A stretch of DNA of 32,000 nt. Origin: Patescibacteria group bacterium. Its GTDB lineage: Bacteria; Patescibacteriota; UBA1384; XYA2-FULL-43-10. This document shows, one piece after another, positions 21,602 through 23,054 of this stretch. The first letter of the stretch is position 1. Every line of letters begins with the position of its first letter. A program made the translations under genes and the position numbers. Location: NCBI GenBank assembly GCA_041674405.1, contig JBAYVT010000001.1, positions 218,827 through 250,826 on the forward strand. The letters are read 5' to 3'. Below the pieces are notes generated by a model. That model saw only the letters and a program-made list of their open reading frames with translations. It had not been told where the DNA came from and ran no database searches.

Positions 21602-21862
21602 ATGAAACCAAGCGTATATATTTTAAAACTCGATGACGGAAGTTATTATATTGGATCAACTCGCGACTTAAAGAGACGCATTGCTGAACACCGGAAAGGT
21701 TTAAAAGCCAGTACAAGATTTTCTAAGAATCCCCAGATCGTATTCTTCCAGAATTTTGAAACTTATCATCAAGCTCGAATTATCGAGATAAAATTAAAAT
21801 CCTATAAAAGTCGCAAAGTGATCGAAAAAATTATTAAGGAAGGAAAAATTAACAAATTATAA
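21602..21862 (+). CDS. GIY-YIG domain protein (86 aa)
   Basis: 'VYILKLDDGSYYIGSTRDLKRRIAEH' is a canonical GIY-YIG core. Confidence 0.85.
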   Translation: MKPSVYILKLDDGSYYIGSTRDLKRRIAEHRKGLKASTRFSKNPQIVFFQNFETYHQARIIEIKLKSYKSRKVIEKIIKEGKINKL

Positions 21863-21866
21863 TAAT

Positions 21867-21943
21867 GGGCCCGTAGCTCAGTTGGTTAGAGCGCATCGTT
21901 GACATCGATGAGGTCTGCAGTTCGAGTCTGCACGGGCCCACCA
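21867..21943 (+). tRNA. tRNA-Val (anticodon GAC), CCA encoded
   Basis: Acceptor GGGCCCG/CGGGCCC, D-loop AGCTCAGTTGGTTAGAGC. Anticodon stem CATCG/CGATG with loop TTGACAT. T-arm CTGCAGTTCGAGTCTGCA. Confidence 0.95.
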
Positions 21944-21995: not shown

Positions 21996-22868
21996 TTACT
22001 TTTTGGCTTTTTTCTTGACCGCAATTTTGGCAGCTTGTTTCGGTGCGACTTTCGGTACAGTAATAGTCAAAATTCCGTTGTCCATCTCAGCTTCGGCCTT
22101 TTCTGATTTAACTTCGGATGGCAGTGTGAAGCTTCTAGTAAATGATCCAGTATACATTTCTTTGTGATAAAATCCCTCGTCTTTTTCTTCCTTTTCCTCT
22201 TTTTTCTCACCAGAAATTGTCATTATGTTATCGGCAACTTCAACAGTGACATCTTCCTCGGCAACTCCCGGAAGTTCGGCTTTGACTATGACAGCGTCTT
22301 TGGTTTCTTTTACATTGATTTTCGGCATTCCGCCAGCCTTGGCTGGGGTGACAACGCTTTCCTCAAAAAGACGATCCATTGCATCACGGAGAGTAACCAT
22401 TTCTCCGAAAGGGCGCCACGGCCCAATTTCTCTTGGCATAGAATTCTCCTTTACCCCGAGCCTGTCGAGGGGTTTACCCACCTCATCGAGCCTGTCGAGG
22501 GGTTTACCCACCTCATCGAGCCTGTCGAGGGGTTTACCCACCTCATCGAGCCTGCCGAGGAGTCTCTCGTCCTCAATTTGTCCGAGTTGCCCAGCAGTTG
22601 CGGGGTTATGATTAATAATTTTTATTGGTGAATTATTTTCAAACATTTGATTAATTTCTTTTTCAAAATCAAATATTTCCTCAAATGCAGAATTGAAAAA
22701 ATTGCACATCGATACAACAAGGGGTAGTGATGGCATATATTTCCCCTGCTCAAGAGCGATCACAGACTGCCGGGAAATACCCAGAGCTTCGGCCAGTTCC
22801 TCTTGTGAAAGATCGTGTTGGCGACGAAGTTCGCGCAATCTGTTTTGAATGTTTGGTTCTTCTTTCAT
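21996..22868 (-). CDS. XRE-family HTH regulator fused through a decapeptide repeat linker to an Hsp20/alpha-crystallin domain (290 aa)
   Basis: N-terminus 'LRELRRQHDLSQEELAEALGISRQSVIALEQGK'. Three copies of 'LDEVGKPLDR'. C-terminus 'VKETKDAVIVKAELPGVAEEDVTVEV...ISGEKK...FTRSFTLP...AEMDNGILTITVPK'. Internal AAGGAG+ATG at 22439 could also give a stand-alone 147-aa sHSP. Confidence 0.75.
   Translation of the reverse strand: MKEEPNIQNRLRELRRQHDLSQEELAEALGISRQSVIALEQGKYMPSLPLVVSMCNFFNSAFEEIFDFEKEINQMFENNSPIKIINHNPATAGQLGQIEDERLLGRLDEVGKPLDRLDEVGKPLDRLDEVGKPLDRLGVKENSMPREIGPWRPFGEMVTLRDAMDRLFEESVVTPAKAGGMPKINVKETKDAVIVKAELPGVAEEDVTVEVADNIMTISGEKKEEKEEKDEGFYHKEMYTGSFTRSFTLPSEVKSEKAEAEMDNGILTITVPKVAPKQAAKIAVKKKAKK
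22461..22550. repeat. 3 perfect tandem copies of a 30-bp unit (cctgtcgaggggtttacccacctcatcgag), in frame within the CDS
   Basis: Units at 22461, 22491 and 22521, with partial degenerate copies on both flanks (22454-22460, 22551-22560). Confidence 0.95.
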
Positions 22869-22926
22869 AATTTTTTACTCATCAGTGATGGAATTCTGTG
22901 AAAGATCCTTGTGGTTAAATTTCATT

Positions 22927-22948
22927 GATGTAAAGTTTACTTTACATC
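22927..22948. promoter_or_regulatory. palindromic operator candidate overlapping the HTH-Hsp20 promoter
   Basis: GATGTAAAGT-TT-ACTTTACATC (10-bp perfect arms). On the minus strand, TTGACA (22962-22957), 17 nt, then TAAACT (22939-22934) lies inside the palindrome. Confidence 0.5.
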
Positions 22949-23054
22949 ATGATCTTTGTCAAGGTGCCTTAAATGAAATCAAAAGCTAAATCAAGAATTA
23001 AAACCGCAAAAAAATCAATAAATTTCAAATTACATTTATTAATTTTAATTATAG

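Follow-up and report, generated by a model that had tools for sequence, protein, structure and literature searches.

A small heat-shock protein fused to a DNA-binding domain as the probable heat-shock repressor of Berkelbacteria

What would a bacterium do with a single protein that joins a DNA-binding domain to a complete chaperone? The question is raised by a gene in a 32,000-nucleotide stretch of DNA (the window; G000:C1:218827-250826) from a member of Candidatus Berkelbacteria, an uncultivated ultra-small bacterium whose assembled genome comprises 929 kb in 7 contigs and is 98.7% complete. The gene encodes a 290-amino-acid protein in which an XRE-type helix-turn-helix (HTH) domain is followed by a linker and a small heat-shock protein (sHSP). 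The comparative analysis presented here makes it likely that the gene is an autoregulated heat-shock repressor with its own chaperone domain as the sensor. Because the palindromic operator at its promoter is found on the dnaK and groES-groEL promoters as well, the fusion is probably the master regulator of heat shock for a class of bacteria that lacks the repressor HrcA.

The open reading frame (ORF) lies on the minus strand and is free of stops throughout its 290 codons. Pfam recognises an HTH_3 domain (PF01381; 53.3 bits against a cut-off of 23, E 2.8e-14) in its first part and an HSP20 domain (PF00011; 82.5 bits against a cut-off of 20.8, E 2.6e-23) in its last (Table 1), while Tandem Repeats Finder reports a 30-nucleotide unit in the linker, present in 3.5 in-frame copies with 98% matches. 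Both programs thus agree with the first-pass annotation of the window, which had described a single frame made of an XRE HTH, a repeat linker and a complete sHSP. In an AlphaFold2 model built from 101 homologues, the HTH domain is helical over residues 10-78 (helices over 11-78) with a predicted local distance difference test score (pLDDT) above 90. The linker (residues 80-143) has a pLDDT of about 50 and is probably disordered. Residues 157-169, in the sHSP N-terminal region, form a helix, and residues 181-275 form a beta-sandwich with a pLDDT above 90. The top Foldseek matches are the sHSPs 3w1z, 1gme and 5ds2 (probability 1.00). A profile search places the HTH nearest, among solved structures, to 9k3w, a 65-residue regulator of the PbsX family (E 5e-23), and to CylR2 (1utx; E 1.8e-18). 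In an alignment of 30 homologues, F243, R245, L249, P250, G265 and L267, which make up the sHSP signatures F-x-R-x-x-x-L-P and G-x-L, are invariant, and the C-terminal I-x-I/V tail is conserved as I-A-V, I-S-I or V-T-I. Stand-alone sHSPs of 145-149 residues align to the fusion with their residue 1 at residue 144, indicating that the C-terminal 147 residues are a whole sHSP and not a bare domain. The N-terminal region and the I-x-I/V tail of sHSPs serve client binding and assembly.

The two domains are found together well beyond the window. All 120 of the best database homologues (231-308 residues, 49-93% identity, more than 92% coverage) contain both; where their source is named it is a metagenome-assembled genome of Berkelbacteria or Patescibacteria, and the name given in the database is just "Hsp20 family protein". 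Within the same order, a single open frame joins both parts in 27 of 30 genomes and one more carries a fragment at a contig end, while no fusion was detected in the other two (G001 and G018). Across the class (Berkelbacteria), the full fusion is present in 17 of 24 sampled genomes, with a fragment in an additional one (G376), and full fusions are confined to this class among 400 evenly sampled Patescibacteria. The fusion is also present in the complete genome CP011213.1 of Berkelbacteria bacterium GW2011_GWE1_39_12.

A palindrome stands directly upstream of the fusion gene. The first-pass annotation had placed it at 22927-22948; the palindrome is real, and its true extent is 22926-22949, a perfect inverted repeat of 11+2+11. 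It is found once in the window against 0 expected from 100 shuffles. The predicted promoter of the gene consists of TTGACA, 17 nucleotides and then TAAACT at the centre of the operator, a register unlike that of the dnaK promoters of relatives (promoter elements in this work are consensus matches and not mapped start sites). The conserved core of the operator, ATGTAAAG-N4-CTTTACAT, has just three good sites in the 929-kb host genome, and each follows a TTGACA hexamer. One is the promoter of the fusion gene itself, another lies 244 nucleotides before dnaK and reads TTGACA-tt-operator, and the remaining one lies 52 nucleotides before groES-groEL and reads TTGACA-at-operator with TACAAT as the -10 element. 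The dnaK operon of the host consists of dnaK, a 230-residue ORF without a Pfam match (L191:2485-3177) and a dnaJ-like gene. No operator within 4 mismatches was found near grpE or the two Hsp100-type ATPase genes of the host genome, and its stand-alone 130-residue sHSP has a separate promoter without the operator.

The same arrangement recurs in the promoters of relatives (30 genomes, operator counted at up to 3 mismatches). It precedes 27 of 27 fusion genes, 29 of 29 dnaK genes and 25 of 29 groES genes in relatives for which the upstream region was recovered. Searched genome-wide at up to 1 mismatch, each relative has 1-4 sites (2-4 except in genome G018), while a reversed control pattern gives 0. 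In 28 of 30 dnaK promoters exactly 2 nucleotides separate the end of TTGACA from the operator, and positions 16-21 of the operator in these relatives form a -10-like TACATT or TACAAT, 17 nucleotides after the -35 element. A protein on the operator would cover the spacer and the -10 element, which is the position of a repressor.

The class in which the fusion occurs lacks the usual repressor of these genes. HrcA is encoded by 335 of 401 sampled Patescibacteria and by 0 of 24 genomes of the class, a tally that takes in one unpublished genome (G182) on which the conclusion does not depend. A search with PF01628 (HrcA) gave no match in the host genome or in the 24 class genomes, and CtsR and MerR-family (MerR_1) proteins gave no match in the host genome. 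Neither were their sites evident in the host genome: no CIRCE (controlling inverted repeat of chaperone expression) was found within 3 mismatches, the single match at 4 being poor, and no credible HAIR (HspR-associated inverted repeat) or CtsR-box was found, with one poor mismatched match per pattern. The operator is present in 19 of the 20 class genomes that encode a member of the HTH family and in 0 of the 4 that do not (G224, G239, G363 and G389). Outside the class, Patescibacteria that possess HrcA encode HTH homologues of 64-88 residues (about 40-49% identity), and these adjoin a membrane protein of about 120 residues and the same operator, before thioredoxin, Redoxin and DsbD-type genes. 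The operator of this outgroup reads ATGT[A/C]AAG-N4-CTT[T/G]ACAT (loci L103-L110, e.g. L105:2018-2663 and L107:2391-3024). Its occurrence beside HTH homologues at thiol-redox operons indicates that the operator follows the HTH family and not the heat-shock genes. It would be surprising for an unrelated regulator to retain a site beside one HTH family in two gene contexts, which makes the HTH the candidate for binding it.

A second feature of the gene is a start site within it. The internal ATG (22439-22437) is Met144 and would open a nested product of 147 residues, and the Shine-Dalgarno (SD) sequence AAGGAG 6 nucleotides before it is where the first-pass annotation had put it. Met144 is invariant in the 30 aligned homologues and more than 90% conserved in 101. 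In 23 of 23 parsed relatives, 5-8 nucleotides matching AAGGAGGT stand 5-9 nucleotides before the internal ATG, whereas of the 159 other in-frame Met codons just 6 have a comparable SD (at least 5 nucleotides) before them. Codon choice at the SD is also shifted, with AAG:AAA at 19:5 against 196:409 elsewhere in the same genes and GAG:GAA at 23:5 against 274:435. At one locus (L021) AAGGAG is kept even though the amino acids there differ (GRRIM), indicating that selection acts on the nucleotides. Class-wide, the internal SD and Met are present at about 33 of 34 loci (counted after reading by eye second Met codons caught by the pattern), even where identity is down to 35-39%, as in the complete Berkelbacteria genome. 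The start of the long isoform has no good SD in the host genome, and in two other families it lies 6-9 nucleotides after the -10 element so that the mRNA would be leaderless. With a leaderless or SD-poor start, the long form is probably made in smaller amounts. A free 147-residue sHSP is probably also made from the internal start, and little repressor with much free sHSP is the likely outcome. The suggestion in the first-pass annotation that the locus makes both a fusion and a stand-alone sHSP thereby gains comparative support from the conservation of the SD and Met144, which is what the two predicted products rest on.

Table 1. Features of the fusion locus in window coordinates
Feature	Position	Strand	Basis
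Full-length gene, 290 residues: XRE/CylR2-like HTH, variable linker and complete sHSP (long isoform, proposed repressor)	21996..22868	-	ORF, translation, Pfam
HTH_3 DNA-binding domain, residues 11-64; fold reaches about residue 78	22677..22838	-	Pfam, AlphaFold2, profile match
In-frame tandem repeat, 30 nucleotides x3.5, within the disordered linker (residues ~80-143)	22457..22560	-	Tandem Repeats Finder, homologue P0002, depth, pLDDT
Internal Shine-Dalgarno AAGGAG, 6 nucleotides before the internal ATG	22446..22451	-	Sequence, SD survey of relatives
Nested ORF from Met144, 147-residue stand-alone sHSP (proposed short isoform): N-terminal region, alpha-crystallin domain, C-terminal I-x-V	21996..22439	-	Conservation, alignment
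Alpha-crystallin (HSP20) domain, residues 186-283	22020..22313	-	Pfam, AlphaFold2, Foldseek
Operator, a perfect palindrome with arms of 11 bp around a 2-bp spacer; core conserved as ATGTAAAG-N4-CTTTACAT	22926..22949		Sequence, relatives
Predicted -35 hexamer TTGACA of the fusion-gene promoter	22957..22962	-	Consensus match
Predicted -10 hexamer TAAACT, inside the operator	22934..22939	-	Consensus match

A mechanism can be proposed that would join these elements. The CylR2-like HTH would bind the palindrome, probably as a dimer. The operator fills the spacer and -10 element of what appear to be sigma-70-type promoters (TTGACA, 17 nucleotides, TACATT or TACAAT), and the bound repressor would block RNA polymerase at its own gene, the dnaK operon and groES-groEL. 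In unstressed cells, dimers of the long isoform would sit on the three promoters. Unfolded proteins, a heat-driven rearrangement of sHSP oligomers, or both would pull the repressor off and the three operons would be induced; it would be withdrawn by clients that its sHSP part binds, either by itself or when assembled together with the short isoform. Once DnaK and GroEL had cleared the clients, the repressor would return to DNA. The short isoform, translated from the same mRNA, could act as a chaperone and may co-assemble with the long form. The first-pass annotation had imagined that a DNA-binding domain tethered to a chaperone could couple proteotoxic stress to transcription; the recurrence of the operator only at the dnaK and groES-groEL promoters favors such a coupling, in which binding and release under stress are the presumed steps. 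A wider proposal is that in Berkelbacteria this nested-start gene replaced HrcA as the master heat-shock regulator, that unfolded proteins compete directly with DNA for a repressor fused to an ATP-independent holdase, that the free short chaperone may modulate this repressor, and that the DNA-binding module and operator were recruited from a CylR2-like thiol-redox regulator. Taken as a whole, this proposal has an even chance of being correct.

Other explanations of the locus differ in what they dispute. One is that the single frame arose by recent read-through, by mis-assembly across the repeat or by the wrong joining of two genes; in its favor, the linker is a perfect tandem repeat that no short-read contig from the four DNA runs spans (copy number was gauged by depth ratio). 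The repeat unit is 30 nucleotides, so any copy number preserves the frame, and among homologues the linker varies greatly in both length and sequence. One homologue (P0002) exactly misses two repeat units and otherwise matches the window protein wherever it is aligned, and repeat-free relatives share the single frame across families at just 35-60% identity. Contigs from four metagenome studies (landfill and groundwater) match both flanks of the repeat identically. These Logan contigs end at the repeat, where unitig depth is 2-3.7x that of the flanks, and no stop codon or frameshift was seen. No RNA run is listed among those that contain the locus. The first-pass annotation had offered a recent read-through of two genes as one option, which is rejected because the fusion is one open frame in 27 of 30 genomes of the order, in 17 of 24 of the class and in all of the 120 best homologues; an error of any of these kinds is hardly credible. 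A different objection concerns the binder: some other regulator may bind the palindrome, the fusion gene may be a mere member of its regulon, and the HTH may have another target or tether the chaperone to DNA. Any heat-shock regulon would be expected to hold an sHSP gene, and genome G018 has the dnaK operator without a detectable fusion. The operator, nevertheless, accompanies the short HTH homologues outside the class, beside their own genes and at unrelated thiol-redox operons, it is missing from the four class genomes that lack the fusion, and no HrcA, CtsR or MerR-type regulator was found to take the role. A separate binder is very improbable on these grounds.

A subtler alternative accepts the fusion as the repressor and makes the alpha-crystallin part a mere oligomerisation scaffold, or the HTH dimer a temperature sensor, with unfolded proteins uninvolved. 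CylR2-type HTH proteins form dimers, and those of 66 residues have been solved as stand-alone chains. Two genomes keep the HTH with a mere stump of a few beta-strands of the alpha-crystallin domain (G086, 132 residues, L096:1771-2166; G402, 144 residues, L097:1744-2175), and in plant ARID2/3/4 the alpha-crystallin domain beside the ARID domain is thought to serve homo-oligomerisation (PMC12071340). A mere dimeriser, however, would not need the N-terminal region and the I-x-I/V tail that are conserved with the rest of the sHSP in most lineages, nor would it call for the conserved internal start for a free sHSP, making this alternative unlikely. The preferred reading, an autoregulated repressor with its own chaperone as the sensor, has several points to contend with. 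Given the two lineages with only a stump of the domain, the full chaperone is not always needed; the stump forms have neither the sHSP N-terminal region nor the internal Met, and G086 retains the operator just upstream of its stump-form gene. In G018, a 100% complete genome of 60 contigs, dnaK alone has the operator and no fusion or HTH was found. G283 carries the fusion and has no operator within 1 mismatch. Since any heat-shock regulon should include an sHSP gene, the operator at the fusion's own promoter is by itself no proof of autoregulation, and the genomes compared are related and not independent samples. Heat normally dissociates sHSP oligomers into dimers. Such a dissociation would not obviously free a dimeric repressor, making release the weakest step of the mechanism.

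A full-text literature search returned no description of an HTH-Hsp20 fusion or of heat-shock control in Berkelbacteria or the candidate phyla radiation, in keeping with the impression in the first-pass annotation that the architecture is uncharacterised. The proposed system resembles HrcA/CIRCE (class I, e.g. Bacillus subtilis) in having an autoregulated repressor, an inverted repeat at the dnaK and groE promoters and a coupling to chaperone load, and HrcA and the fusion have a complementary distribution across Patescibacteria. The two repressors are unrelated in sequence, and GroEL acts in trans in the HrcA system whereas an ATP-independent sHSP is covalently fused here. In the HspR/HAIR system of Streptomyces and Helicobacter (PMC6032397, PMC6102357), DnaK acts as a co-repressor. 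HspR likewise represses chaperone operons, and its binding to DNA relies on a chaperone titrated by unfolded proteins, as is proposed for the fusion, but HspR belongs to the MerR family and in the fusion the chaperone sits in the same polypeptide. Among solved structures, the HTH is closest to 9k3w and to CylR2, the cytolysin repressor of Enterococcus faecalis (1utx, 2xiu). The partner of CylR2, CylR1, is a small membrane protein, and the pair of HTH and approximately 120-residue membrane protein outside the class resembles CylR2/CylR1. CylR2 is a stand-alone protein of 66 residues that serves a toxin operon, whereas the HTH of the fusion carries a linker and a whole sHSP and has its sites on chaperone promoters.

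In Streptomyces albus the sHSP gene hsp18 is controlled by RheA, a repressor that senses temperature. Like the fusion as proposed, RheA is a dedicated repressor linked to an sHSP gene and responds directly to heat; unlike it, RheA and Hsp18 are encoded by separate, divergent genes and hsp18 is the sole target, while the fusion is one gene with sites also at dnaK and groESL. Nested in-frame starts give two isoforms of ClpB (long and short), IF2 and CheA (CheA-L and CheA-S). In these, as is proposed for the fusion gene, an internal SD and ATG yield a shortened protein that has the same C-terminal domains as the long one and is able to co-assemble with it. The short form of the fusion differs in that it would lose the DNA-binding domain and so could modulate a repressor. 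In plant ARID2/3/4 a single chain contains an ARID DNA-binding domain together with an alpha-crystallin domain (PMC12071340), but these proteins are eukaryotic subunits of chromatin complexes in which the alpha-crystallin domain is regarded as an oligomerisation module; they are not linked to heat-shock promoters and lack a nested sHSP.

The history of the fusion was examined with a tree of the sHSP part from 82 fused and 75 stand-alone proteins. Of the closer fused homologues, a random draw of 25 was included and the others were omitted. The fused label needs 8 changes on this tree, of which well-supported branches force at least 4. A single fused clade is not rejected by the approximately unbiased (AU) test (p 0.383), and all fused proteins share the same HTH family. 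A single origin of the fusion is compatible with the data.

To our knowledge, the sensing of protein damage is known for only a few bacterial regulators (sigma-32, HrcA, HspR and CtsR), all of which need a separate, mostly ATP-dependent chaperone. If the proposed mechanism holds, the sensor and the repressor would be one chain and the sensor would be an sHSP that needs no ATP. It would also explain how chaperones are controlled without HrcA in a whole class of ultra-small, uncultivated bacteria. The design is minimal and directly testable, with a small soluble protein, a 20-bp operator and three target promoters. It would also be a clear example of a rewired regulon, the operator having stayed with an HTH family as the genes downstream of it were exchanged. 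A possible use in synthetic biology is as a compact stress-responsive switch.

Several further observations were made on the heat-shock loci of Patescibacteria. The leader of dnaK in the host genome (about 215 nucleotides) contains a GC-rich hairpin between the promoter/operator and the start codon (L002:1546-1610, C1:~181780-181845), for which no Rfam match was found at a permissive threshold. The recognisable grpE of this genome is located elsewhere (C1:146722-147177). At loci L104 and L110, an hrcA-grpE operon has the outgroup operator within or next to its upstream region. The family within the class that includes G224 and G363 is without the fusion, the operator and HrcA, and the groES leaders of these two genomes (L201, L203) share a GC-rich element containing GGTTCCCCCTTACCT, which may be an RNA structure or the site of another regulator. 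A second family of Patescibacteria, f23, is also largely without HrcA (present in 2 of 23 genomes); the fusion is absent there too, and many of its genomes are just 68-88% complete.

Among the relatives, G029 possesses two paralogous fusion genes (C1:2666-3376 and C6:55607-56344) with an operator at each. The database matches include sHSPs of about 150 residues (P0148 and P0153, 51-53% identity) and an 85-residue protein that consists of the HTH only (P0173); these may be either shortened gene predictions or genuinely split forms. The host genome also encodes a 478-residue Obg GTPase with a C-terminal NUDIX domain (L191:4420-5856). In the window, a tRNA-Val(GAC) gene (21867-21943) lies tail-to-tail with the fusion gene, and an 86-residue GIY-YIG-like ORF (21602-21862) ends 4 nucleotides before the tRNA.

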